Below, piece after piece: positions 8,328 through 59,818 of a DNA stretch of 64,000 bases. A program made the translations under genes and the position numbers. The stretch is taken from positions 1-64,000 of IMG/VR virus record IMGVR_UViG_3300037420_001736. One strand, written 5' to 3'. This DNA is from a virus. Below the pieces are notes generated by a model, which saw only the letters and a program-made list of their open reading frames with translations, did no database searches and was not told where the DNA came from. Within the stretch, counting starts at the first letter, position 1. The number at the start of each line of letters is the position of its first letter.

Positions 8328-8866
8328 ACCTGCTGGACTTCTGGATGGGCATGACGGGCGTGGTGCTGCCGTTCGCTGGCGGCACGGCGCCGAGCGGCTG
8401 GCTGCTGTGCTACGGCCAGTCGCTGCTGCGCTCCGACTACCCGGAGCTGTTCGCTGCCATCGGCACGACCTACGGCTCGGCCGACGGCACGCACTTCAAC
8501 GTGCCGGACCTGCGCGGCCGCTACGCTGCCGGCAAGGACAACATGGGCGGCACGGCGGCCAGCCGCCTGGTAGCCAACGTCGCCGGCGGCATCACCGCAT
8601 CCGATGGGCAGACGCTGGGCAAGAGCGGCGGCGTTGCCACGCACACGCTGACCGCGGCCGAGCTGCCGGCGCACCAACACTACGTCGGCGTGGATTCCGG
8701 CATCACGCAGGGCGCCGGCGTCAACCGCATCGGCAGCGGTGGCGGCGCCACCACCTCGACGGCCGAGGCCACCAGCGTCAACGCCATCACCAGCGCCGTC
8801 GGCTCCGACGCCGCGCACAACAATCTGCCGCCACTGCTGGTGCTGAACTACATCATCAAGGCCTGA
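8324..8866 (+). CDS. Phage tail-collar domain protein (second short fiber)
   Basis: GTAPSGWLLCYGQSLLRSDYPELFAAIGTTYGSADGTHFNVPDLRGRYAAG is a classic tail-collar motif. Confidence 0.75.
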   Translation: MNLLDFWMGMTGVVLPFAGGTAPSGWLLCYGQSLLRSDYPELFAAIGTTYGSADGTHFNVPDLRGRYAAGKDNMGGTAASRLVANVAGGITASDGQTLGKSGGVATHTLTAAELPAHQHYVGVDSGITQGAGVNRIGSGGGATTSTAEATSVNAITSAVGSDAAHNNLPPLLVLNYIIKA

Positions 8867-8886
8867 AGCGCAGCGCTTAGCACACC

Positions 8887-8912
8887 AGCCCCGGACCCTC
8901 CGGGGCTTTTTT
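8887..8912 (+). terminator. Rho-independent terminator after the tail fiber operon
   Basis: AGCCCCGGA-ccc-TCCGGGGCT hairpin followed by TTTTT. Confidence 0.7.
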
Positions 8913-8962
8913 GTGTCGTGACGTGAGACTTCACTGCGTCGCAACGCCAGTCCCCTGCTCAC

Positions 8963-9319
8963 ATGGACAAGCTCAACGCATGGATCGATGCCTTCCAGGT
9001 GCTGCTTGGAAAGGCCGGGCGGCTGGGCGCGCTCTTTGACAAGAGCGCCTGGCTGCTGATGCTGCCGGCGCTCGGCGCGCTCTACGCCACCGACGAGGCG
9101 CTGACCAAGACGCTGGTGCAGTGGTGCACCTTCGCGATGGTGCTGGCGGGCGCGGCGATCATCATCTCGCGCGTCACGTTCCCGCAGATCGATCTCACCG
9201 CGATGGTCGAGAAGGTCAAGAGCGAGAACAGCATGCCGGCGGCGGTGCTGTGCCTGGCCGTCGTCATCTTCGTGTCCTCGCTGATGATCGCCCTCGTGAT
9301 GTGGGCCAAGGGCACGTGA
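8963..9319 (+). CDS. Holin-like membrane protein
   Basis: 118 aa with about 3 hydrophobic segments. Lies directly upstream of, and overlaps (GTGA), the endolysin gene. Confidence 0.5.
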   Translation: MDKLNAWIDAFQVLLGKAGRLGALFDKSAWLLMLPALGALYATDEALTKTLVQWCTFAMVLAGAAIIISRVTFPQIDLTAMVEKVKSENSMPAAVLCLAVVIFVSSLMIALVMWAKGT

Positions 9320-10032
9320 AGCCGCTGCGGGCGCTGCTGCTGGCCGTCGCGCTGTTCGCGCGCGGCTGCTGGCCCGCTCCGGTGCCGGCGGCCGAGCTGC
9401 CGCCGCAGGCCGCGCAGCACCTGCCGACGCTGCGCGCCGTGCAGCTGCAGGTCTGGCCCGATGCGCCGCTGCCGTCGTTCCTGGCCGCGCAGGTCGAGCA
9501 GGAGAGCTGCATCACGCTGAAGCACCCACGCTGCTGGAATCCGCGCGTAGAGCTCAAGACCAGCCGCGAATACGGCTTCGGCCTCGGCCAGGTGACGATC
9601 GCCTACAACGCCGACGGCAGCGTGCGTTTCGACCGCTGGAGCGAGCTGCGCGCGCAGCACGCCAGCCTGTCCGGCTGGACCTGGGCCAACCGCTTCGAGC
9701 CGCGCTACCAGCTCACCGCGCTGGTCGAGATGGACCACGGCATCTACCGGCGCGTCGCCGGCGCCGCCAGCGCGCGCGAGCGCCTGGCGATGACGCTGGC
9801 GGCCTACAACGGCGGCGAGGGCGGCCTGCGCCAGGACCGCCTGCTATGCCGCAACACGCTCGGCTGCGACCCGGCCCACTGGTTCGGACACGTCGAGCGC
9901 AACTCCCTCAAGAGCCGGCAGCCCTTCAAGGGCTACGGCAAATCAGCCTTCGAGATCAACCGCGAGTACCCACCCAACGTGCTGGACCTGCGGCGTCCGA
10001 AGTACGAGCCATTTTTCAGGGAGCAGCCGTAG
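9316..10032 (+). CDS. SLT-type lytic transglycosylase endolysin with N-terminal signal/anchor
   Basis: GTG start overlapping the upstream stop. VKPLRALLLAVALFARGC is signal-like. SLT catalytic region AAQVEQESCITL...EYGFGLGQVT. Confidence 0.7.
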   Translation: MKPLRALLLAVALFARGCWPAPVPAAELPPQAAQHLPTLRAVQLQVWPDAPLPSFLAAQVEQESCITLKHPRCWNPRVELKTSREYGFGLGQVTIAYNADGSVRFDRWSELRAQHASLSGWTWANRFEPRYQLTALVEMDHGIYRRVAGAASARERLAMTLAAYNGGEGGLRQDRLLCRNTLGCDPAHWFGHVERNSLKSRQPFKGYGKSAFEINREYPPNVLDLRRPKYEPFFREQP

Positions 10033-12661: not shown

Positions 12662-13864
12662 TCAGGCGGCCGCCGGTTCTTCTTCGCGGCGCCTGGTCTT
12701 CCAGTTGACCGTGATCACCTCGGCCACCTTCTGCGCCACCTTGGCCTTCTCCGAGCCGCGGCCGTGGATGTAGCGCTCGGTGGTGCTCATCTGCTTGTGG
12801 CCCAGCTGGCCCTGGATCTGTTTCTGCGTCAGGCCGGCCTCGTGGCCGGTGGAGCCGACGGTGTGGCGCAGCGTGTGCGGCGTCGACTCCTCGGGCACGC
12901 CGGCGCGCCTGGCGATGCGCTTCCAGGGCTTCCACGGCGACGCCAGGCAGCAGCCCGGCTTGCGGCCCGGGATCAGCCACCGGCGGTCCTTGCCGTACAC
13001 CGCGTCGAGCTCGGCGATGATCTCCATCGCGATGTCGGGCAGCTGGATCGGCCGCTGGCCGACCTTGGAGTCCGGCAGCAGCAGCAGCTGGCGGTGCGCG
13101 TCGACCCAGCGCCGCTCGGCGGTGCGGATCTCGCTGTTGCGGCAGCCGGTGACCAGCCACAGGCGCACCAGCGCGGCCATCGCCAGGGGAATGTCCTGCT
13201 CGGCCACCAGCTCGTCGCAGGCGCGGTCGACGGCGCTGAACTGGTCCGGCGCCAGCACCAGGTCCTTCTGCCGCGTCTTGTACTTCTTCAGCCGGTAGCA
13301 GGGGTTGCTGTTCTGCGGCCGCCACTTCCACTCCTCGGCCAAGTTGAAGGCCTTGCCCAGCAGCGCCACGACCTGGTTGGCCGCTGACGGGGTCTGCACG
13401 AGCTCGCCCTGCAGCTTCAGCACGTCGGCCTTGTCGATCTCGGCCACTTTGCGCTGCGCCCACCTGGGGAGGATGTAGCGGCGCCAGGTGCCGTCGTCCT
13501 CCTTGGCGCTGCGCGGCTTCTTGAACGGCTCGGCCCACTCGCGCTGGTAGCGGTCGCGCAGGTCCTGGATCGTCGGCGCCTCGCGCGCCTCCTGGCGCTC
13601 GACGGCCGGGTCGCGGCCGTCGGCCACCTGGCCGAACACCTTGCGCGCCTTCTCGCGCGCCTTGTCGGGCGTGAGGTCGCAGCAGCGGGCGATGGTCATC
13701 TTGCGCGCGGTGCCATGCTGGTTGCGGTAGCGCACCACGAAGGTCTTGCGGCCGCTGGCCTGCACGCGCACACCGAACCCTGGCACCTCGCTGTCCCAGA
13801 CCCAGTGGTCGCCCTTCTCGGGCGTCGCGGCGTTGTCGACGATGGTCTTGTTGAGCTTCGGCAT
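12662..13864 (-). CDS. int: Tyrosine integrase (P4-type, N-terminal arm-binding domain)
   Basis: GGAGAA RBS before MPKLNK. WVWDSEVPGFGVRV arm-type N-terminus. Catalytic HTLRHTVGS...LGHKQMSTTERYIH. Confidence 0.9.
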   Translation of the reverse strand: MPKLNKTIVDNAATPEKGDHWVWDSEVPGFGVRVQASGRKTFVVRYRNQHGTARKMTIARCCDLTPDKAREKARKVFGQVADGRDPAVERQEAREAPTIQDLRDRYQREWAEPFKKPRSAKEDDGTWRRYILPRWAQRKVAEIDKADVLKLQGELVQTPSAANQVVALLGKAFNLAEEWKWRPQNSNPCYRLKKYKTRQKDLVLAPDQFSAVDRACDELVAEQDIPLAMAALVRLWLVTGCRNSEIRTAERRWVDAHRQLLLLPDSKVGQRPIQLPDIAMEIIAELDAVYGKDRRWLIPGRKPGCCLASPWKPWKRIARRAGVPEESTPHTLRHTVGSTGHEAGLTQKQIQGQLGHKQMSTTERYIHGRGSEKAKVAQKVAEVITVNWKTRRREEEPAAA

Positions 13865-13888
13865 CGGTTCTCCAAGTAGCTTCGAGCC

Positions 13889-13918
13889 CGGGCGCACTTC
13901 GGGCGCAGGTCGGGCGCA
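13889..13918 (+). promoter_or_regulatory. Three tandem CGGGCGCA boxes at exact 11-bp spacing
   Basis: CGGGCGCA at 13889, 13900 and 13911, just upstream of the int start. Confidence 0.6.
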
Positions 13919-14164: not shown

Positions 14165-14250
14165 GCCGGGGTGGCGGAACGGTAGACGCGCGGCGCTCAA
14201 AACGCCGTGTCCGCAAGGGCGTGCAGGTTCGATTCCTGTTCCCGGCACCA
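14165..14250 (+). tRNA. tRNA-Leu(CAA): tRNA-Leu (anticodon CAA), class II with long variable arm, CCA encoded
   Basis: Acceptor GCCGGGG/TCCCGGC. Anticodon loop CT-CAA-AA. Variable stem-loop GTGTCCGCAAGGGCGT. T-loop GGTTCGATTCC. 86 nt. Confidence 0.9.
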
Positions 14251-21315: not shown

Positions 21316-21521
21316 TGTTTGCGGGTGGGGTAGTGTTCGTGACGGCGATTGTTAATCAAATTTGAGCAGGCTACAAGCGGTCGCCCCGCTTTCTCTTTTT
21401 GATACACCGCCTACACTCGAAACATCACGCCAGGTCACGGAAGTTCACTGCGTTCTGTTTGCCGGCTTGATCAAAAGCGGTACACTCGGAGCCACTTTTA
21501 TTTGATCAACCTAGGACCAAG
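21316..21521. promoter_or_regulatory. Divergent early promoter/operator region
   Basis: Low-GC 206-bp spacer. Palindromic box TAATCAAATTTGAGCA (21353-21368). TTGATA/TTGATC boxes, each followed by TACACTCG (21413, 21481). TTTGATCAAC at 21501. Confidence 0.6.
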
Positions 21522-25046: not shown

Positions 25047-27920
25047 GTGAGGGTGGGCGTGGAATCACTCTCGCTTGACGCGGTCAGGGCAGCGCTCAGC
25101 GTCCTGTCGCCGGCCGACCGCTTCATGCGGGTCAGGATCGGCGAGGCCATCAAGGACGAGTTCGGCGACGCTGGCTTCGATACCTGGGACACCTGGTATC
25201 AGGGGCACGACCGCCACACGGCCAACGAGGCGAAATCGGCCTGGAAGTCCTTCGGCAAGGGTGGCCCCAAGCGCTGCACCATCGCCACCCTGGTCTACGA
25301 GGCCAAGAGGGCCGGCTTCAAGTTCACCAAGAAGCATCAGCTGAAGCAAACCGCCGAGGAGCGCGCGCGCTTCGAGGCCGAGCGCGCCGCGCGCCGCGCC
25401 GCCCTGGAGGCCGAGGCCGCCGCGCAGGAGGCCGCCGCCGCCGAGCGCGCAGCGGCGATCTGGGCGGCTGCCGGCGAGGATCCTGCCGGCCACCCGTACC
25501 TGGCGCGCAAGGGCATCCAGCCGCTCGGCAGCGTGCGCCGCGCGCGCGAGTGGGTGAAGGAGTGGACCGACGCCGAGGGCGAGATCCGCACCATCACGTT
25601 CAAGGACGCGCTGCTGGTGCCGATCTGGTCGGCGCCGGGCAAGCTTGCGAGCCTGCAGGCGATCCTGCCGTCCAAGGTGATCGGCCGCGAGGGCGAGAAG
25701 CGCGACAAGGACTATCTCACCGGAGGCCGCAAGCACGGCTGCTACTGCGTGCTGGGCCGCGTGAAGGATGCGGCCGTGGTGCTGGTGTGTGAGGGCTACG
25801 CCACCGGCGTCAGCCTGCACCAGGCCACCGGCTATCCGGTGATGGTGGCGTTCGACGCGAGCAACCTGCAGGCCGTGGCCGAGCAGCTGCGCGCGAAGCT
25901 GCCCGAGGTGCCGATCGTCATCTGCGCCGACAACGACCAGTTCACCAGGCCGCGGCGCGACGGCTCGAAGTGGAACCCTGGTGTCGAGAACGCCACCGCG
26001 GCAGCCGAGGCCTGCAAGGGCCTGGTGGCCGTGCCGCAGTTCGACAGCCTGGAGGACGAGCCGACCGACTTCAACGACCTGGCGCAGCGCCAGGGTGAGG
26101 CCGCGGTGCACGACGCCATCGAGCTCGCGCTGCGGCCGCCGGCGCCGGCACCGGCACCGGCCGAGGCGCCGCCGTGGGACGGCGAGGAGCAGCCGCCTGC
26201 GGCCGCGCCAGCGCCCGACGCACCGAAGTCCGAGGGCGACGACGGCGGCGAGGACGACGAACCCGGCATGCCGGAGAAAAACGGCTACTTCGCGGTGCTG
26301 GGCTACGATCACGGCGCCTACTACGTGTTCGTGCACGGCAAGCGCCAGCTGATGGTGATGCACAAGGGCGACATGGGCCTCAACGGCTTCCTGGAGCTCG
26401 CGCCGCTGAATTGGTGGGAGATGCACTTCCCGCCGCCCAGCGAGAAGACCAAGATCGACACGCCGGCCGCGGCCAACTTCCTGATCCAGACCGCGCACAA
26501 GCGCGGCATCTACGACCCGACGCGCATCCGCGGCCGCGGCGCCTGGGAGGACGAGGGCCGCATCGTGTTCCACCACGGCGGCTACCTCAGCGTCGACGGC
26601 GTGCCCACCGACATCACGGCCATCAAGTCGCGCTACGTCTACGAGCTCAACCGCTCGCTGCCGGAGCCGGCCGAGGATGCGCTGACCAGCGACGAGGGCG
26701 AGGCGCTGCTGTCGATCGCCGAGCGCTTCCGCTGGGCCACGCCGGGGTCGGCCGCGCTCATGCTCGGCTGGGTCGCGCTGGCGCCGGTGTGCGGCGCGCT
26801 GCCCTGGCGGCCGCACCTGTGGCTGACCGGCGGCGCCGGCAGCGGCAAGTCGACCGTGCTGACAAAGTTCGGTCACCACCTGCTGTCGGGTATCGACGTC
26901 TACGCGCTGGGCAAGAGCACGGAGCCCGGCATCCGCCAGGAGCTCAAGAGCGACGCGCGGCCGGTCATGATGGACGAGTCCGAATCCAACGAGGAGGACG
27001 ACGTCAGGCGCATCCAGAACATTTTGGGCCTGATCCGCCAGGCCTCCAGCGAGACCGGTGCCAAGACCTACAAGGGCACTGCCACCGGCCATGCGCTGAG
27101 CTTCGACGTGCGCAGCATGTTCTGCCTGGCCTCGATCCAGGTGGCGCTGAAGCAGAAGGCCGACATCGACCGCCTCACGGTGCTGGCGCTGCGCTCGACC
27201 ACCGAGGAGGAGAAGGACGGCGCCGGCGAGGAGTGGCGCACGCTGCGCGAGATCCTGCACGGGCTGCACAAGGACCGCACGCTGCCGGCGCGCCTGCTGC
27301 GCCGGGTGATCGACCAGCTGCCGGTGACGCTGCAGGCCATCACGGTGTTCTGCGATGCGGCGGCCGACAAGTTCGGCAGCCAGCGCGACGGCGACCAGTA
27401 CGGCACGCTGCTGGCCGGCGCCTGGTCGCTGATCAGCACGCAGGTGCCCACGCGCGAGCAGGCCGTCGAGCTGATCGAGCGCTACGACTGGAGCGAGTAC
27501 CGCGAGCGCAGCGACGAGGACGAGTCCAAGCGCGCGCTGGCCGCGCTGCTGGAGGCGCACATCCGCGTGCACGGCGGCATCGAGGTGACGGTGTTCGAGC
27601 TCGTGGCCGCGGCCAGCCAGCGGCCGACCGACGTGGTGGACCTGACGGCACCGAAGGCGCAGGCCTTCCTGGAGCGCCATGGCCTGAAGGTGAAGGACAA
27701 CCACCTGCTGGTGTCCAACACCAGCGTCGAGCTGCGCAACCTCATGAGCGGCACACAGTTCGCCGCCGACCTGCGCGGCCTGCTGCTGCGCACGCCCGGG
27801 GCCATCAAGTGGGAGAAGGCCGTGAAGTTCAGCGGCGCCGTCTCGCGCGCGATCGCGCTGCCGCTGGAGCCGATCGTCGGCCACCTGGTGGTGGTGGCGC
27901 CTGATGAGCGGCCGTTCTGA
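25047..27920 (+). CDS. Bifunctional primase-helicase (TOPRIM plus P-loop helicase, P4 alpha-like)
   Basis: TOPRIM VLVCEGYATGVSLH...VICADNDQF. Walker A LTGGAGSGKSTVL. Walker B RPVMMDESE. 957 aa. Confidence 0.85.
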   Translation: MRVGVESLSLDAVRAALSVLSPADRFMRVRIGEAIKDEFGDAGFDTWDTWYQGHDRHTANEAKSAWKSFGKGGPKRCTIATLVYEAKRAGFKFTKKHQLKQTAEERARFEAERAARRAALEAEAAAQEAAAAERAAAIWAAAGEDPAGHPYLARKGIQPLGSVRRAREWVKEWTDAEGEIRTITFKDALLVPIWSAPGKLASLQAILPSKVIGREGEKRDKDYLTGGRKHGCYCVLGRVKDAAVVLVCEGYATGVSLHQATGYPVMVAFDASNLQAVAEQLRAKLPEVPIVICADNDQFTRPRRDGSKWNPGVENATAAAEACKGLVAVPQFDSLEDEPTDFNDLAQRQGEAAVHDAIELALRPPAPAPAPAEAPPWDGEEQPPAAAPAPDAPKSEGDDGGEDDEPGMPEKNGYFAVLGYDHGAYYVFVHGKRQLMVMHKGDMGLNGFLELAPLNWWEMHFPPPSEKTKIDTPAAANFLIQTAHKRGIYDPTRIRGRGAWEDEGRIVFHHGGYLSVDGVPTDITAIKSRYVYELNRSLPEPAEDALTSDEGEALLSIAERFRWATPGSAALMLGWVALAPVCGALPWRPHLWLTGGAGSGKSTVLTKFGHHLLSGIDVYALGKSTEPGIRQELKSDARPVMMDESESNEEDDVRRIQNILGLIRQASSETGAKTYKGTATGHALSFDVRSMFCLASIQVALKQKADIDRLTVLALRSTTEEEKDGAGEEWRTLREILHGLHKDRTLPARLLRRVIDQLPVTLQAITVFCDAAADKFGSQRDGDQYGTLLAGAWSLISTQVPTREQAVELIERYDWSEYRERSDEDESKRALAALLEAHIRVHGGIEVTVFELVAAASQRPTDVVDLTAPKAQAFLERHGLKVKDNHLLVSNTSVELRNLMSGTQFAADLRGLLLRTPGAIKWEKAVKFSGAVSRAIALPLEPIVGHLVVVAPDERPF

Positions 27921-34345: not shown

Positions 34346-34678
34346 ATGGAGACCCTGATGCAAGCCCTCCCCTCGAACCCTGAGCCGCCGGCACGCCTGG
34401 GCGCCCTTCAGCTGGCCCTCTATAACAGCGTGCTGTCCATAGCGAAGGCATTCGACGACAGCGTCGAAACGCTGGACCCGCGCCGGGCCTCCGTCACGCT
34501 GCTGAACTTCATGCGGGCGAACCCGGGCCTGGATGAGCGACAAGCGCGTCGCGCCGCGGATGCGCTGGTGGCGCGTCGCATCCTCAAGGTCAGCAAGATC
34601 GGCTGGTCGCTGGCTGATCTGGAATACGAGCGCCTGCTGCAGCAGCGGGTGCGCGAGCTGACTGGACCCAACACCTGA
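34346..34678 (+). CDS. Hypothetical protein
   Basis: 110-aa track ORF. Confidence 0.5.
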   Translation: METLMQALPSNPEPPARLGALQLALYNSVLSIAKAFDDSVETLDPRRASVTLLNFMRANPGLDERQARRAADALVARRILKVSKIGWSLADLEYERLLQQRVRELTGPNT

Positions 34679-34738
34679 CCGGCTGACGGTGGCAGCGGCT
34701 TGCCCAGTGGCAGGCCAGTGCAACCCGATGGAGACCCT
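34676..34738 (+). repeat. Intergenic hairpin-RBS cassette copy R4
   Basis: TGACCGGCTGACGGTGGCAGCGGCTTGCC-cagt-GGCAGGCCAGTGCAACCCGATGGAGACCCT-ATG. Confidence 0.7.
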
Positions 34739-34915
34739 ATGGCATCCCCTGATGAGACACCGATCCAAGCCGCCATCCGCGGCCTGGAGGAGCGCGCCGC
34801 GGCGCGTGAGGCGGCCGCCGCGCACCTGAACCAGCTGGCCGAGACCGTCGGCGCCAAGCCCGTGGTGCGTGGCCTGGTGGTGCTGGCCAGCGTCGCGCAG
34901 GGGCGGCTGCCGTGA
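34739..34915 (+). CDS. Small hypothetical protein
   Basis: GGAGA RBS supplied by the cassette. MASPDETPIQAAIRGLEE. Confidence 0.5.
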   Translation: MASPDETPIQAAIRGLEERAAAREAAAAHLNQLAETVGAKPVVRGLVVLASVAQGRLP

Positions 34916-35331
34916 GGCCGGCGCAACGCCTGCTGGCGCGCGCCGCCGCGCATGCCGTCGAGGACTACCAGCGCCGCGAGGCCGAGCTGCGCGAGCTCGG
35001 GCCGGCGCTCGCGCACCTGGACGAGTTCGTGCCGGCGCTGGCCGCGCGCGGGCTGGAGATCGGCATCAGCGACTACAGCCTGAAGCTGGAGCACTACTAC
35101 CCCAGCGGCAGCATCCTGGGCCGCAAGCTCAAGGTGGTGCGCCTGCACACCCGCGGCATCGTGACCAGCGACGCTCGGGTGGCGAAGTGGATCACCGCGC
35201 TGGAGGAGCTGGGCTTCAAGGAGATCGAGCGCAGCACCGGCTCCTACCCGACGGTGCTGCTGCGCAAGGGGCCGCTGCTGGTGAGGGTGGATGCGCCGGT
35301 GGCGCTGCCGGCGCCGGGAGGTGCGGCATGA
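34912..35331 (+). CDS. Hypothetical protein
   Basis: 139-aa track ORF with an overlap start. Confidence 0.5.
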   Translation: MRPAQRLLARAAAHAVEDYQRREAELRELGPALAHLDEFVPALAARGLEIGISDYSLKLEHYYPSGSILGRKLKVVRLHTRGIVTSDARVAKWITALEELGFKEIERSTGSYPTVLLRKGPLLVRVDAPVALPAPGGAA

Positions 35332-35588
35332 GCGGCGCAGCTATCGCCCATGCCGGCGACATGATCCTGGGTGGGCTGCTGTTCCTGATCTGCGCGGCGG
35401 CCCTGCTGGTGCTGCTGCTGCTCGGCGTGCTGCCGTTCATGGTCAGCTCCGTGCGGATGTTGCTGACGCCTGGTGATCGGTTGGAGGGCGCTGCCATCCT
35501 CCTGATTCAGCTGGTCGCAGCGACGCTGATCGTTGGGCTGCTGCTGAGCCTGACTGGCGGCGCGTTGCGCGCAGCGGGGTGGCCATGA
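35328..35588 (+). CDS. Small multi-pass membrane protein
   Basis: MSGAAIAHAGDMILGGLLFLICAAALLVLLLLGVLPFMV... 2-3 TM segments. Confidence 0.5.
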   Translation: MSGAAIAHAGDMILGGLLFLICAAALLVLLLLGVLPFMVSSVRMLLTPGDRLEGAAILLIQLVAATLIVGLLLSLTGGALRAAGWP

Positions 35589-35809
35589 AGGCGCAGCGGC
35601 TGCCCACTGGTCACAAGCTGATCAGCGATGGGCCGCCCGGCAGCCTCAAGAGCTGGACCTGGCGGTGCGAGTGCGGCGGCTGGGGCCCGGTGCCGACGCC
35701 TGACAAGGGGCCGTTCGGCAGCACCACGAGCAAGGCGCGCATCGCGCAGGTCGAGATGGCGCACGGGAAGCACGTCAAGTACGCATTGATCAAAAAGGAT
35801 ACGAAATGA
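35579..35809 (+). CDS. Small Cys-containing protein
   Basis: 76-aa track ORF. WRCECGGWGP. Confidence 0.45.
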   Translation: MAMKAQRLPTGHKLISDGPPGSLKSWTWRCECGGWGPVPTPDKGPFGSTTSKARIAQVEMAHGKHVKYALIKKDTK

Positions 35810-36318
35810 GCTCAATCCCCCCGCCGCCCCTGCGCGGCATGGTCGAGCGCCTGGTGCGCCACTTCGCGCCCGGCCCCGCGGCCGAGGCGCTGCTGCGCGA
35901 GCACCGCGGCATGCTGGAGCAGCTGGTCATGCAGGTGCACCTGGAGTGCGCGATGCTGGTGGCCGAGGCGCACGGGCAGGTCAGCCCCATCACGCACATG
36001 ACGCTGGGCCCGCACGCCAGCGAGGCCGTGCACAACGTCATCACGAACCTGGCCGGGCGCGTGCTGGCCCGGGCGGGGATGGAGCCGACGGTGTTGCCGA
36101 AGGCGCAGCCGGTGCTGACTGGTGAGCAGGTGGCGCGAATCGACAAGGCACACCGGGACGTCGTCAGGGCCACGGCGCTGCTCGGTTCGATGATTGCGCG
36201 CAATGCGGGCCAGCAGGAGTTCCGTGAGGCCGAGGAGCGCCTGGGCCAGCTGAACGCGGCCTGGGCGAGCCTGGTGGCAGACATGCTGCCTGACCCGCCG
36301 GAGGTGCGTCGTGGCTGA
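35806..36318 (+). CDS. Hypothetical protein
   Basis: 170-aa track ORF. Confidence 0.5.
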   Translation: MSSIPPPPLRGMVERLVRHFAPGPAAEALLREHRGMLEQLVMQVHLECAMLVAEAHGQVSPITHMTLGPHASEAVHNVITNLAGRVLARAGMEPTVLPKAQPVLTGEQVARIDKAHRDVVRATALLGSMIARNAGQQEFREAEERLGQLNAAWASLVADMLPDPPEVRRG

Positions 36319-36520
36319 CCAGCGCCTCTACGCCCTGGTGTTCGAGGCCGACAAGGCGCATGACGCGGTGGTGGCGGCCCTCGCACGGCTCGCGACGTCG
36401 CCAGGAACCGGCAGTTTGCCCAAGCGCCAGGCCGATGTGATGGCCGCTGGGCAGCGCTGGGAGGCCGCGATGGTGGCCCTGTACGCGGCAGCCGGTGTCA
36501 GGCGAGAGATGAGGCTGTAG
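36311..36520 (+). CDS. Small hypothetical protein
   Basis: 69-aa track ORF. Confidence 0.45.
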   Translation: MADQRLYALVFEADKAHDAVVAALARLATSPGTGSLPKRQADVMAAGQRWEAAMVALYAAAGVRREMRL

Positions 36521-36550
36521 CGGCGCCTCTCACCCCAATCTGAACCCCAC

Positions 36551-36584
36551 GGCGCAGCGCTTCACGGCCTGCGCCGTTTCTGTT
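36551..36584 (+). terminator. Terminator-like hairpin ending the small-gene operon
   Basis: GGCGCAG..CTGCGCC stem followed by GTTTCTGTT. Confidence 0.5.
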
Positions 36585-36981
36585 ACCGAGCGCGGTTTCT
36601 CCTATGAGAACCACGGTAACAGCGCACCGTTACCGCACCCCTGAACAGCAACCCGCCAGGCCCCAGTAACGCCGCCGAAGGCCGTAACCACGCGGTGACC
36701 AGCCATGTTATGCGCTAAGTGCTTGTCAGCATTGAAGAAAGTGACACGGTAACGGGGTAACAGCGTTCCGAAAGCCCGGAGAGATATAGCGTGTGCGTGT
36801 GCGTGCGTGTGTGTGCGCATGCGCGTGTGCATGTGCATGCGCACGTGCGTGTGTATGCGTGCATATATATATATTTTCTAAGTTACTATGTTACTTCTTC
36901 TTCTAGTGACTCCTAAGTTGTTGTCGGGATTGAAGAATTTTGGAAACAATGGTTTGGTTACCCGCTGTTATCGCGGTTACT
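36582..36981. repeat. GGTAAC/GTTACC iteron array (candidate origin or protein-binding array)
   Basis: About 13 GTAAC/GTTAC-containing sites. GTAAC orientation at 36615, 36665, 36683, 36748, 36756. GTTAC orientation at 36582, 36629, 36882, 36890, 36956, 36967, 36975. GGTAACAGCG occurs twice. Confidence 0.6.
36789..36874. repeat. Perfect 86-bp alternating purine-pyrimidine tract
   Basis: Every position from 36789 to 36874 alternates R/Y (GT, GC and AT steps), ending in (AT)6. It is followed by an AT-rich stretch. Confidence 0.9.
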
Positions 36982-37041
36982 GGGTGCCGATCGTTCAAGT
37001 TCATTGAACATCACGCGAATACTGGGAAACCCCAGACCACT

Positions 37042-37057
37042 TAATCAAATTTGATTT
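37042..37057. promoter_or_regulatory. Palindromic operator-like box upstream of the 37097 operon
   Basis: TAATCAAATTTGATTT. The core AATCAAATTTGATT is a perfect palindrome. Confidence 0.55.
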
Positions 37058-37096
37058 AGAATTCGCCGCACCTCGTCGGGCAAAGGACCAGTCGCA

Positions 37097-37621
37097 ATGG
37101 TCGAATACTTCGGAATCGAGGCGGCACCCGGACAGACCTTCTTCCGGTGTGAACGCCAGCGCGCGACCCTCAGCGCGCCCGCCTGTGCGTCCATGTGGCG
37201 CCAGGCCAACCATGACAACCTGGAGAGCCGCATAGGCTGCAAGCGGTGCCCCATCGGCGCCGAGCACGCCGGTGAGCTCTACGCCAACATGAGCGCGCTG
37301 CACGGCACGCTGACATGCGCCAGGTGCCACCGCGGCGCCGAGCGCCTGATCGGCGGCATGCACTGCGTCAGCTGCTACAACCGCGAGCGCGAGGCCGTGC
37401 TGGGCCGCAACGCCAAAGGCACGCGGCCGACCAAGCTGCCGCCACTGGAGCCGCGGCGCCTGTGGTTCCTGAGCGGGCGCGCGCTGACGTGCCTGTCGCG
37501 GCCACGCACCACCGACATCAGCGAGCTGATCGTCAGCGCGCTGCGTGACAGCCAGGACCGCGTTCGCTTCGCCTTCCGAGCGCCGACACCGCGCCGTGCC
37601 CAGCTCGCCTTCCCCTGGTGA
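37097..37621 (+). CDS. Cys-rich (multi-zinc-ribbon) protein
   Basis: 174 aa with CKRCPIG, CARCHRG, CVSCYN. Confidence 0.5.
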   Translation: MVEYFGIEAAPGQTFFRCERQRATLSAPACASMWRQANHDNLESRIGCKRCPIGAEHAGELYANMSALHGTLTCARCHRGAERLIGGMHCVSCYNREREAVLGRNAKGTRPTKLPPLEPRRLWFLSGRALTCLSRPRTTDISELIVSALRDSQDRVRFAFRAPTPRRAQLAFPW

Positions 37622-37899
37622 GCGCCATGGACGACCACGTCTGGCGCATGACACGCCACGCCTGCGCTGTGTGCTTCGGCCGGATCCTGGCCCGGCCGCA
37701 CGCCGGCGAGACCCTGTACCGCTGCAGCAACTGCGGCCTGGAGCGCGTGAGCACGCGCCCCGAGACGCTGTGCGCCTGCGGCATCACGCTGAAGACCGGG
37801 CGCAATGCCGGCCTGCGCTGCCTGGTCAACCAGCAGCGCACGCCGGAGTGCCCGAGCGAGATCGTCGTTGAGGAGATCAGCGGCCCGCAGAGGCCGTGA
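37618..37899 (+). CDS. Small zinc-ribbon protein
   Basis: CAVCFG...CSNCG...CACG...C. Confidence 0.5.
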   Translation: MSAMDDHVWRMTRHACAVCFGRILARPHAGETLYRCSNCGLERVSTRPETLCACGITLKTGRNAGLRCLVNQQRTPECPSEIVVEEISGPQRP

Positions 37900-38290: not shown

Positions 38291-38502
38291 TCGTCTGGAC
38301 CGAAGCAGCGCCGCCGCGCCGCGGCACCTACCCAGTCAGGCGCACCAGCTCCAACGCCGTCGCTGGTTACCGTTACTGGGACGGTGAGCGCTGGGGCATC
38401 CTCTGCCACACCTACAAGGGTGCGCAGCACATCAAGACCACCGGCCGGCGCCGACCGATGCGCACGGTGCACTGGGGTCGAACCATTCAGGGGAACGGCT
38501 GA
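38287..38502 (+). CDS. Small hypothetical protein
   Basis: 71-aa track ORF with an overlap start. Confidence 0.45.
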   Translation: MIVWTEAAPPRRGTYPVRRTSSNAVAGYRYWDGERWGILCHTYKGAQHIKTTGRRRPMRTVHWGRTIQGNG

Positions 38503-54568: not shown

Positions 54569-54645
54569 TGTGGAGTAGCGCAGCACGGTAGCGCGCCAGG
54601 CTCATAACCTGGAGGTCGCAGGTTCAAGTCCTGCCTCCGCAACCA
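54569..54645 (+). tRNA. tRNA(CAU): tRNA with CAU anticodon (Met or Ile2), U1-A72, CCA encoded
   Basis: Hand-folded cloverleaf. Acceptor TGTGGAG/CTCCGCA. D stem GCGC/GCGC. Anticodon stem CCAGG/CCTGG with loop CTCATAA. T arm GCAGG-TTCAAGT-CCTGC. Confidence 0.8.
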
Positions 54646-59295: not shown

Positions 59296-59662
59296 CCGCG
59301 GCGATGATGACGGGAATCGTCATCGCGATCAGCTCGCGCCGGAAAGCACCCGGCGTGACGCCGGTGTGACGCTTGAACGCCTCATTGAAGTGGCTCTGGC
59401 TGGAGAAGCCACACCGATAGGCGACGTCACCCAACTTGATGGACTGGTCACGCAACAGGCGCTTTGCGACGTCGATGCGGCGCCAGCACACATATCGCAT
59501 CGGCGACTTGCCGACGCACTTAGCGAATCTTCGGCTGAAGTGAAATTGGCTCATAAATGCCACGCGGGCCAATTCATCCAGTGTAATGCGCTCACCAATA
59601 TTGGTATCGATATATTCTAAAGCTCTAGACACGCCGCGTGGCATTGCATTTGTTTTGGTCAT
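59273..59662 (-). CDS. Stand-alone AraC/XylS-family HTH activator (MarA/SoxS-like), moron
   Basis: LDELARVAFMSQFHFSRRFAKCVGKSPMRYVCWRRIDVAKRLL...YRCGFSSQSHFNEAFKRHTGVTPGAFRR. 129 aa. Locally low GC. Confidence 0.85.
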   Translation of the reverse strand: MTKTNAMPRGVSRALEYIDTNIGERITLDELARVAFMSQFHFSRRFAKCVGKSPMRYVCWRRIDVAKRLLRDQSIKLGDVAYRCGFSSQSHFNEAFKRHTGVTPGAFRRELIAMTIPVIIAAVNQLLAA

Positions 59663-59818
59663 GACTCCGGTCTGATTCGGTTAATCCAAATCTAGACTCT
59701 GAATATATTGATAATGTGAATAGGTGAAAGAGATTTATTCTCTCCGTCGGCGCGCGCGGCTGCTGCCGATTCGATCGTGACACGATGATCCCGGGACGCA
59801 CCCCACGGGCCGTCCCTG

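Follow-up and report, generated by a model that had tools for sequence, protein, structure and literature searches.

What keeps 86 consecutive nucleotides of a phage genome in strict purine-pyrimidine (R/Y) alternation? The run (here called the tract) lies in the first 64,000 nucleotides of IMG/VR virus record IMGVR_UViG_3300037420_001736 (here called the window; 68% GC, from a record of 95.5 kb), and the features of the window are located in Table 1. We judge the chances to be about even that the tract is the twist-responsive central spacer of an origin-like element in a ∼95-kb phage related to Bordetella phage PHB04. For the element as such, a replication origin is the best-supported reading, and its architecture makes this rather more probable than the specific role of the tract.

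The alternation holds in all 85 steps of the tract, as originally predicted from the sequence. Read in the RY register, the tract consists of 17 GT, 15 GC, and 10 AT units and a single AC unit. It falls into a 74-bp part of GT, GC, AT, and AC steps (65% GC, with a G+T-rich + strand) and a closing (AT)6 at 36863 to 36874, with AT-rich DNA directly 3′ of it, so both the mixed steps and the AT-rich end had been described correctly. Tandem Repeats Finder returned weak periodicity (periods of 6 to 24, with 64 to 93% matches), and a simple microsatellite was rejected because four dinucleotide unit types are intermixed and the tandem-repeat fits are weak. The second-longest R/Y run in the window is 16 nt. 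Given the share of alternating steps in the window (0.556), the expected number of runs of at least 86 nt is ∼6e-18, and the longest runs in 300 first-order Markov simulations averaged 19 nt, with 28 nt as the highest value; the chance expectation of ∼2^-85 given in the original prediction has the correct order of magnitude per position. The tract sits, as also noted there, in a 576-bp gap free of open reading frames (ORFs), with the left ORF ending at 36520 and the right ORF starting at 37097.

Short repeats (iterons) surround the tract on both sides. Within 400 bp, the element holds 11 GTWAC cores and 1 degenerate copy, and this one gap accounts for 11 of the 20 GTWAC pentamers of the window (mean, 0.16 per 500 bp). 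The seven left cores start at 36582 (−), 36616 (+), 36629 (−), 36666 (+), 36684 (+), 36749 (+), and 36757 (+). The last two form a tandem pair, 8 bp apart and directed towards the tract, and the right pair (core starts at 36882 and 36890, both −) faces them from the other side. The 120-bp spacer between these inner pairs contains no repeat, and the tract covers 72% of it (86 of 120 bp). Further out, a 16-nt inverted repeat (I1) joins 36609-36624 with 36963-36978. A second motif, CTAAGT, is present in three copies in the window, all of them in the element and two of them within the 25-nt direct repeats that bracket the tract. At its position, relatives have a perfect integration host factor (IHF) consensus (TAAGTnnTTGATTT), which is degenerate in the window; no IHF consensus was found in the window region. 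DnaA boxes (TTATCCACA) with two or fewer mismatches were not found in 36521-37096.

The least stable DNA of the window abuts the tract. In nearest-neighbour calculations, the 40-, 60-, and 100-bp stability minima of the 64 kb all begin at 36862-36863, and the duplex free energy over 40 bp (dG40) of this segment is −40.5, versus a window mean of −65.6 (standard deviation [SD], 4.0). The 74-bp GC-containing part of the tract has average duplex stability and is thus not itself the unwinding element. Where the window has its trinucleotide run beside the right iteron pair, relatives have (CTT)3, (CTA)4, (TAC)3, (ATC)3, (ATT)4, (GTA)5, or TATATA.

The same layout lies upstream of homologues of the Cys-rich protein gene in PHB04, Aeromonas phage ST4, Pseudomonas phage Jeremy, Morganella phage Mecenats66, and dozens of metagenomic phage contigs, and it is common to at least 17 related phage lineages. 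The iteron itself varies by phage (GGTAAC, GGTTACC, GGTATC, GGTAGC, GTAACA, CGTTAC, or GGTACA). The right pair, anchored in relatives by an AT-context criterion and checked by eye, keeps its 8-bp spacing in 15 of 17 lineages; to the left, after 94 to 133 bp free of iterons, these lineages have a tandem of the opposite orientation. In the homologous 589-bp gap of PHB04 lie 10 of that genome's 35 GGTATC/GATACC sites, with no other 500-bp bin holding more than 2; both the stability minimum and the longest R/Y run of the whole 94 kb fall in the same gap. Conservation does not extend to the genes left of the element, so the conserved module comprises the element and the Cys-rich gene; for the same reason, the left-flank genes were rejected as encoding a cognate iteron-binding protein.

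Origins of Staphylococcus aureus pathogenicity islands (SaPIs) have 5- to 6-nt iterons in 6 to 12 copies and a central AT-rich region that is flanked on either side by two or more iterons, which point in opposite directions; a self-loading Rep helicase binds and melts these origins via its C-terminal winged-helix domain (PMC9371898). The phage element resembles the origins of SaPIs and phage-inducible chromosomal islands (PICIs) in its single cluster of about a dozen short iterons (PHB04 likewise has a single cluster in 94 kb), in having at least two opposed iterons per side (in the window and in 15 to 16 of the 17 lineages), and in an iteron sequence that, in both systems, differs between relatives. 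Most of the phage relatives have an AT-rich centre; in the window, 74 of the 120 bp are 65% GC, and AT-rich DNA is confined to the right end and the right pair. Unlike the SaPI origins, the phage element does not lie immediately downstream of the helicase gene, always precedes an unrelated Cys-rich gene, and has extra outer iterons plus the CTAAGT motif (IHF consensus in relatives).

A candidate for the trans-acting initiator that would bind the iterons is the 957-aa primase-helicase of the window. Its AlphaFold2 model (predicted local distance difference test [pLDDT] score, 84.5) has as best PDB folds the Cch helicase of the staphylococcal cassette chromosome mec (SCCmec) (5dgk; E = 1e-7), poxvirus E5/D5, SaPI PriRep1 (7pds), NrS-1, and MCM, and the 120 C-terminal residues are predicted to form helix/hairpin modules. 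With Cch, D5/E5, and PriRep1 as its nearest predicted folds, a further likeness to SaPIs, PICIs, and SCCmec, the modelled fold is that of the origin-binding, self-loading helicase class. The SaPI gene order is found in contig L103 (L numbers denote the sequences compared here), which is unrelated to the phage. There, a CHC2 primase gene is followed by a DUF927 plus Cch-HTH primase/helicase gene, and 70 bp further downstream lie two inverted GGTTACTTGGTTAC pairs, 106 bp apart around an AT-rich centre. An exact-pattern scan for GGTTACTTGGTTAC in viral contigs found L103, mostly chance matches otherwise, and no new R/Y tract. GGTTAC tandem pairs inverted around AT-rich centres were also seen on L119, L145, and L125, besides L103 (9782-9915), which suggests a wider class of phage origins with the same hexamer. 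The geometry shared with SaPIs, the Cch-class helicase fold, and the arrangement in L103 are what make a replication origin the best-supported reading. The primase-helicase would bind the iterons on both sides and then open the DNA between or beside them, as the SaPI Rep does at its origin.

Two other replication systems offer partial parallels. Satellite phage P4 encodes the alpha primase-helicase, which has an origin-binding C-terminal domain, and its ori and crr carry octamer iterons beside an AT-rich stretch. The phage element shares with P4 ori the primase-helicase fusion, the short iterons in both orientations by an AT-rich stretch, and the distance from the gene, but P4 needs a second repeat cluster (crr), whereas these phages have one cluster per genome. 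The basal unwinding system of bacterial oriC consists of a tandem DnaA-box pair, DnaA-trios, and an AT-rich region. The element likewise has a tandem initiator-type pair followed by a trinucleotide run inside the least stable DNA, a likeness that we regard as a lead only: unlike oriC, the element is without DnaA boxes, and the trinucleotide varies between relatives.

The spacer of the relatives bears on whether alternation itself is maintained. Comparable tracts, which the original prediction had proposed to look for in related phage genomes, occur at the same place in further lineages, four in total with the window. Beside the 86 nt of the window, the tract measures 73 nt in L004/L013 (73% amino acid identity to the window in the Cys-rich protein, which starts MVEYF), 40 plus 25 nt with one break in L005/L006 (= L014/L039; 69%), and 65 nt in L040/L041 (51%), where it is identical in two metagenomes. 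All are GC containing, and they differ in their letters by transitions only. Between the window and L004, all 18 in-tract differences are transitions, compared with 23 transitions and 45 transversions in the right flank (probability of 18 of 18 under the flank spectrum, ∼1e-6 to 4e-9). As in-phase alternating tracts can differ only by transitions, the real evidence is that each lineage has stayed perfect while diverging. The L014 and L039 tracts are a single transition apart. The tolerance of transitions alone argues that selection keeps the tract alternating in the window lineage, and by this comparison, the preserved property appears to be DNA shape or twist, not sequence.

Alternation is also enriched in the family at large. 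Over the 90 bp left of the right pair, the alternating fraction is 0.63 to 0.97 in 15 of 18 anchored lineages (random, ∼0.50; SD, ∼0.05), which makes the enrichment a family trend. Imperfect alternation, with fractions of 0.71 to 0.83 over 90 bp, is found, for example, in PHB04, L012, L016, L027, and L042, often with a CA-rich top strand. In most relatives, the spacer is AT rich and only partly alternating, and in the close relatives L092 and L093, it is plain AT rich. The perfect GC-type tract is a sporadic extreme of the family trend, maintained where present; in the window lineage, an AT-rich spacer of alternating steps may have become a GC-containing perfect tract. The spacers of L016, L036, L026, and L015 are irregular and C/A rich (e.g., acacacacatcccacacacaacacacacaccac), like yeast-type C1-3A telomeric repeats, and the window lineage has its G/T-rich strand on top, opposite to these.

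The spacer could instead need only to be ∼100 to 120 bp long and free of iterons, with alternation a functionless by-product of slippage and transition bias. Family spacers are indeed unconserved and take many low-complexity forms (TATATA, CA rich, C rich, and, in ST4, G rich), the conserved quantity is spacer length, the tract is missing in close relatives, and alternation survives slippage of even length. Such drift accounts for the diversity of spacers but not for perfect alternation kept through divergence: to arrive at an unbroken 86-nt heteropolymer from any single-unit microsatellite takes ∼27 transitions and 0 transversions, and three related lineages have diverged by ∼20 to 25% in the tract while remaining perfect or with one break, next to flanks in which transversions outnumber transitions. 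Nor is there any tract length polymorphism between near-identical genomes. Long Z-prone tracts are reported to be deletion prone in bacteria (PMC13174585 and references therein), so the persistence of the tract also argues for selection. We therefore regard drift as an unlikely explanation.

The most likely physical role of the tract is torsional. By sequence, it is a candidate for left-handed Z-DNA, with 86 of 86 positions alternating in 15 GC, 18 GT/AC, and 10 AT units. We modelled closed domains of 5 and 10 kb with B-Z energies from the SIBZ paper (PMC3024258), allowing one run of each kind of transition (B-Z and melting). The modelled B-Z onset is at a superhelical density (sigma) of about −0.035 (range, −0.033 to −0.04), with the Z run growing to 74 bp, and the tract is the dominant stress-absorbing site of the modelled domains. 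The (AT)6 is modelled as staying in the B form, which places the B-Z junction at 36862/36863, 8 bp before a CTAAGT motif and 20 bp before the first core of the right pair. Melting is concentrated in the adjacent AT-rich segment, which opens at a sigma of −0.058 in the native sequence and −0.048 with a scrambled tract. The model thus predicts that the tract, as a supercoil sink, makes opening require stronger supercoiling; the tract could possibly also serve as a torsion store or a junction-forming nucleation point.

These results divide the original proposals. The tract had been expected to adopt Z-DNA or to melt; the Z flip is indeed predicted, but the average stability of the 74-bp part speaks against easy melting. 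An unwinding or supercoil-sensing element of an origin is the best of the three functions then suggested, as the tract is flanked by iterons and abuts the least stable DNA, although the tract is neither itself the unwinding element nor required. The other two, a recombination hot spot and a recognition site, gained no specific support. In the resulting scheme, early transcription would supply negative supercoiling to the element, the tract would flip to left-handed Z-DNA near a sigma of −0.035, a B-Z junction would form at the (AT)6 run, 8 bp from the right iteron pair, and the flip would absorb up to ∼14 turns (74 bp at 0.18 turn per bp, plus junctions), making the tract a supercoil sink or threshold-setter beside the unwinding site, not the unwinding site itself. 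A bolder version holds that the tract is a selected Z-DNA torsional switch or capacitor of a phage origin, which stores transcription supercoils and times the opening of the unwinding site, with selection acting on the R/Y pattern and not on the bases; this proposal is tentative, and we consider it distinctly less likely than not.

Tracts of this kind are otherwise familiar from engineered (CG)n and (CA/TG)n plasmid inserts (Peck and Wang; Nordheim and Rich; PMC3024258). The phage tract has the same strict R/Y alternation of GC, GT/AC, and AT units and, like them, is predicted to dominate the B-Z transition of its domain. Unlike them, it is natural, heteropolymeric, 86 bp long, apparently selected, and located inside a conserved phage cis-element.

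Several observations weigh against an origin with a torsional spacer. Among the papers on these phages, we found none that mapped an origin in a relative. GC skew gives no support at the element: skew at third codon positions (GC3 skew) follows the coding strand, and PHB04 has no skew extreme at the element site. (The cumulative GC skew of the window does peak at 36 to 37 kb, but the switch is due to a few + genes, at 34346-36520, of atypical skew.) The element (36580-36985) lies 9 kb from the primase-helicase gene, unlike in SaPIs; no region of the primase-helicase was found to covary with iteron type, and its N-terminal domain type (PriCT-2 or other) is common to different iteron types. Between the primase-helicase of the window and the Cch-HTH helicase of L103, no significant sequence similarity was detected. 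Most relatives, among them two of the closest, L092 and L093 (67 to 69% amino acid identity), lack the GC-type tract, so the element works without it. A role of the tract in helping the DNA to open is unsupported, as the Z transition competes with melting in the equilibrium model. Unconstrained superhelicity in Escherichia coli is usually quoted as about −0.025 to −0.03; the modelled onset of −0.035 lies somewhat beyond this range, and Z formation would therefore need transcription-driven supercoiling. The model, finally, is crude: a simplified equilibrium with one run of each kind and with approximate parameters for stress-induced duplex destabilization (SIDD) melting.

Table 1. Location of the tract, the surrounding element, and two associated genes in the window
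Feature	Position	Strand	Description
Primase-helicase fusion gene	25047..27920	+	PriCT-2, Toprim, P-loop helicase
Terminator-like hairpin	36549..36585	+	ACGGCGCAG...CTGCGCCGT then TTTCTGTT; inverted repeat I10, terminator scan; ends upstream + operon, left element edge
Left iteron array	36582..36761	.	Seven copies; core GTAAC/GTTAC, consensus cgGTAACag
25-nt direct repeat, left copy	36715..36739	+	CTAAGTGCTTGTCAGCATTGAAGAA; repeat D3, 84% identical to right copy
R/Y tract	36789..36874	.	Perfect alternation, 86 nt, 85/85 steps; GCGTGTGCGTGTGCGTGCGTGTGTGTGCGCATGCGCGTGTGCATGTGCATGCGCACGTGCGTGTGTATGCGTGCATATATATATAT
Least stable duplex, DNA-unwinding-element-like	36863..36962	.	(AT)6, TTTT, right iteron pair, CTT repeats, following AT-rich DNA
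Right tandem iteron pair	36882..36894	-	GTTAC tat GTTAC, 8 bp apart, directed towards tract, opposite to left pair
Trinucleotide run	36894..36906	+	CTTCTTCTTCTAG; directly 3′ of right iteron pair
25-nt direct repeat, right copy	36913..36937	+	CTAAGTTGTTGTCGGGATTGAAGAA; repeat D3
Outer right iterons	36957..36980	-	GTTAC at 36957 and 36976; degenerate GTTAT at 36966
Palindrome	37040..37059	.	CTTAATCAAATTTGATTTAG; inverted repeat I14, 38-57 bp upstream of Cys-rich gene
Cys-rich protein gene	37097..37621	+	174 aa, starts MVEYF, 8 invariant Cys + 2 His; always directly downstream of element

The element might control transcription instead of replication, with the repeats serving as operators for a phage regulator of early operons and the tract coupling or insulating promoters through supercoiling, as Z-DNA forms behind or between transcribing polymerases. 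In its favour, the operons on either side run away from the element in many relatives (PHB04, ST4, Jeremy, Mecenats66, L010-L012, and L022); promoter- or operator-like motifs are shared at both edges, and negative supercoiling is expected upstream of an active promoter of the Cys-rich gene. In the window lineage, however, the operon on the left has the same direction as the one on the right and is closed by a terminator, and a promoter scan found no sigma-70-like promoter in the element region. Moreover, TCAAATnTGA and the other edge motifs have further copies in early intergenic regions elsewhere, whereas the iterons form one cluster per genome. Two opposed arrays with 12 to 25 short sites in all, placed around the least stable DNA of the genome, are what one expects of an origin or centromere and not of an operator. 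Transcription control is about as improbable as drift.

The edge motifs themselves probably belong to the neighbouring operons. The palindrome CTTAATCAAATTTGATTTAG is probably a promoter/operator of the flanking operon, outside the iteron element. The TCAAATnTGA motif (TTAATCAAATTTGA) has one further copy in the window, in the early intergenic region at 21356, and in relatives it adjoins gene starts on both sides of the element. Within the window, TTAATCAAATTTGA(G/T) is confined to 21340-21365 and 37040-37059, both early intergenic regions, and together with GGTCACGGAAGTTCAC-like repeats, it probably constitutes a common promoter/operator of early operons.

In phage P1, the pac site has two sets of hexamer repeats flanking a ∼90-bp cleavage region beside an IHF site. 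A P1-like packaging site could thus explain two repeat sets around a ∼100-bp centre and the IHF-consensus sites of relatives. Mecenats66, the only relative mapped, uses headful packaging with an experimentally mapped start (PMC9503643) next to the element, within its counterpart of the Cys-rich gene. In its record (OL614104.1; L008/L009), the packaging cut is position 1, inside the 3′ end of this homologue, ORF123 (85704..14), which implies that the pac cut of this phage group lies ∼0.5 kb downstream of the Cys-rich gene start, far from the terminase genes. The repeat-bearing gap occupies 85073-85703; the base-precise end is therefore ∼1 kb from the centre of the repeat region, not within the flanked centre as in P1, and this disfavours a packaging site. 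Besides, a pac site needs no least-stable genome DNA, the terminase genes are 7 to 8 kb away, and the Cys-rich protein does not match small terminases in fold. We consider a packaging function quite improbable.

Least likely among the functional alternatives, at a level we would call slight, is that an episomal phage uses the element for plasmid-type partition or as a plasmid origin. P1 parS, like the element, combines short repeats with an IHF site, and one relative is a whole 93.8-kb contig in the assembly of a Paraburkholderia phenoliruptrix isolate. Both the window and PHB04 encode integrases, however (that of the window adjoins a tRNA-Leu gene), no ParA or ParB was found among the proteins scanned, and the isolated relatives were propagated as plaque-forming phages.

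That the tract arose by misassembly or sequencing error, to which low-complexity DNA in a metagenome contig is prone, is scarcely credible: the Logan assembly of run SRR35148586 (L091), made with a different assembler though possibly from the same reads as the window, contains the identical tract within 3,525 bp of 100% identity, and tracts of like kind stand at the homologous place in five other metagenomes, L040 and L041 being identical across two separate samples.

Three further candidates were rejected. An attP site does not fit an element that all relatives have and that is 23 kb away from the integrase gene. A telomere-resolution site was discounted because the spacer is non-palindromic and no protelomerase was seen. 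A structured RNA gene at the tract was discarded on the basis of Rfam, where the only matches were sub-threshold, low-complexity ones to miRNA models derived from GT repeats; the single-strand fold had a z-score of −2.1, with a centroid far weaker than the minimum free energy structure.

The remaining gene content is that of a tailed phage with its own replication functions. The window encodes tail and baseplate proteins, the large terminase, and the portal, along with RecE-like exonuclease, SbcC-like and Dda-like proteins, an SF2 helicase, a single-stranded DNA-binding protein, and the primase-helicase. A near-identity search against isolated phages gave no match; the closest isolated phage is PHB04 (94 kb; 52% amino acid identity in the primase), and remoter ones include Aeromonas ST4, Pseudomonas Touem01, Dolphis, and Jeremy, and Morganella Mecenats66. 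Since PHB04 and the window both carry an integrase, the earlier label of a temperate phage of a high-GC proteobacterium is reasonable. The tyrosine-integrase gene (12662-13897, −) is followed by tRNA-Leu(CAA) (14165-14250, +), likely the neighbourhood of attP, and a second tRNA (Met, CAU) lies at 54569-54645. Two relatives are stand-alone contigs in isolate assemblies: L012 is the 93,795-bp, phage-sized contig JBFPKC010000027.1 of P. phenoliruptrix (GCA_040948575.1), and L016 is a 49-kb contig of Caballeronia pedi. Such contigs could be episomal or actively replicating prophages.

The Cys-rich protein has 198 homologues, but no Pfam or PHROG family, and its AlphaFold2 model (pLDDT, 82) has no fold match in PDB. 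The next gene (37618-37899) also encodes a Cys-rich protein, with CxxC pairs and a common GRNA(K)G motif, and neither of the two matches Pfam, PHROG, or a PDB fold; they may be paralogous zinc-ribbon modules. The N-terminal ∼110 residues of the first resemble (35% identity) the start of a 429-aa hypothetical protein encoded at 8627-9916 of plasmid NZ_CP132287.1 (L096) and on ∼40 similar small plasmids. These are enterobacterial, 10 to 13 kb, non-mobilizable, and without a typed replicon, and a ProQ/FinO gene adjoins. The plasmid protein could be an unrecognised replication or DNA-binding protein; the plasmids held no repeats or domains that clarify the role of the Cys-rich protein.

At the left edge of the element, GC hairpins with T-run terminators occupy the place homologous to the terminator-like hairpin of the window in L004-L006, L016, and L040. 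The + strand ORFs just left of the element (34346-36520) have a GC3 skew of +0.07 to +0.21, and most other + genes have a negative one; the left-hand genes of most relatives are unrelated and on the opposite strand. This suggests that the block was recently inverted or acquired. Two adjacent iteron cores (GTTACCGTTAC, + strand) lie in coding sequence at 38366-38377, 1.3 kb downstream of the element, the sole other site of the window with two cores together. The second least stable DNA of the window is at 59570-59800 (∼67% AT over 100 bp), just 5′ of a very large ORF that runs from 59819 to beyond 64000 (>1,390 aa).

The original prediction knew of no comparable element in a temperate phage of a high-GC proteobacterium, and the papers searched describe none for this phage group; our literature search found no description of a Z-prone tract inside a phage origin. 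We rate the element as a probable origin of the iteron type and the SaPI/Cch class, with a central spacer that, in some lineages, is an apparently selected Z-prone tract. It would be a previously undescribed origin-like element for widespread ∼90- to 98-kb phages of Burkholderiales, Pseudomonas, Aeromonas, and Enterobacterales, a group that includes PHB04, Dolphis, ST4, Mecenats66, and many metagenomic relatives and is tied to the SaPI/Cch origins by the architecture of the element. The function of Z-DNA in prokaryotes is an old and largely open question, on which nearly all evidence comes from engineered plasmid repeats. The tract offers a natural case with a clear genetic handle, at a fixed place in a conserved cis-element, and sister phages with re-lettered tracts or AT-rich spacers amount to a natural experiment with built-in swap controls. 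Should the tract prove to be a Z-DNA torsional switch, purifying selection on the R/Y pattern would be what gives rise to transition-only evolution across diverged phages.

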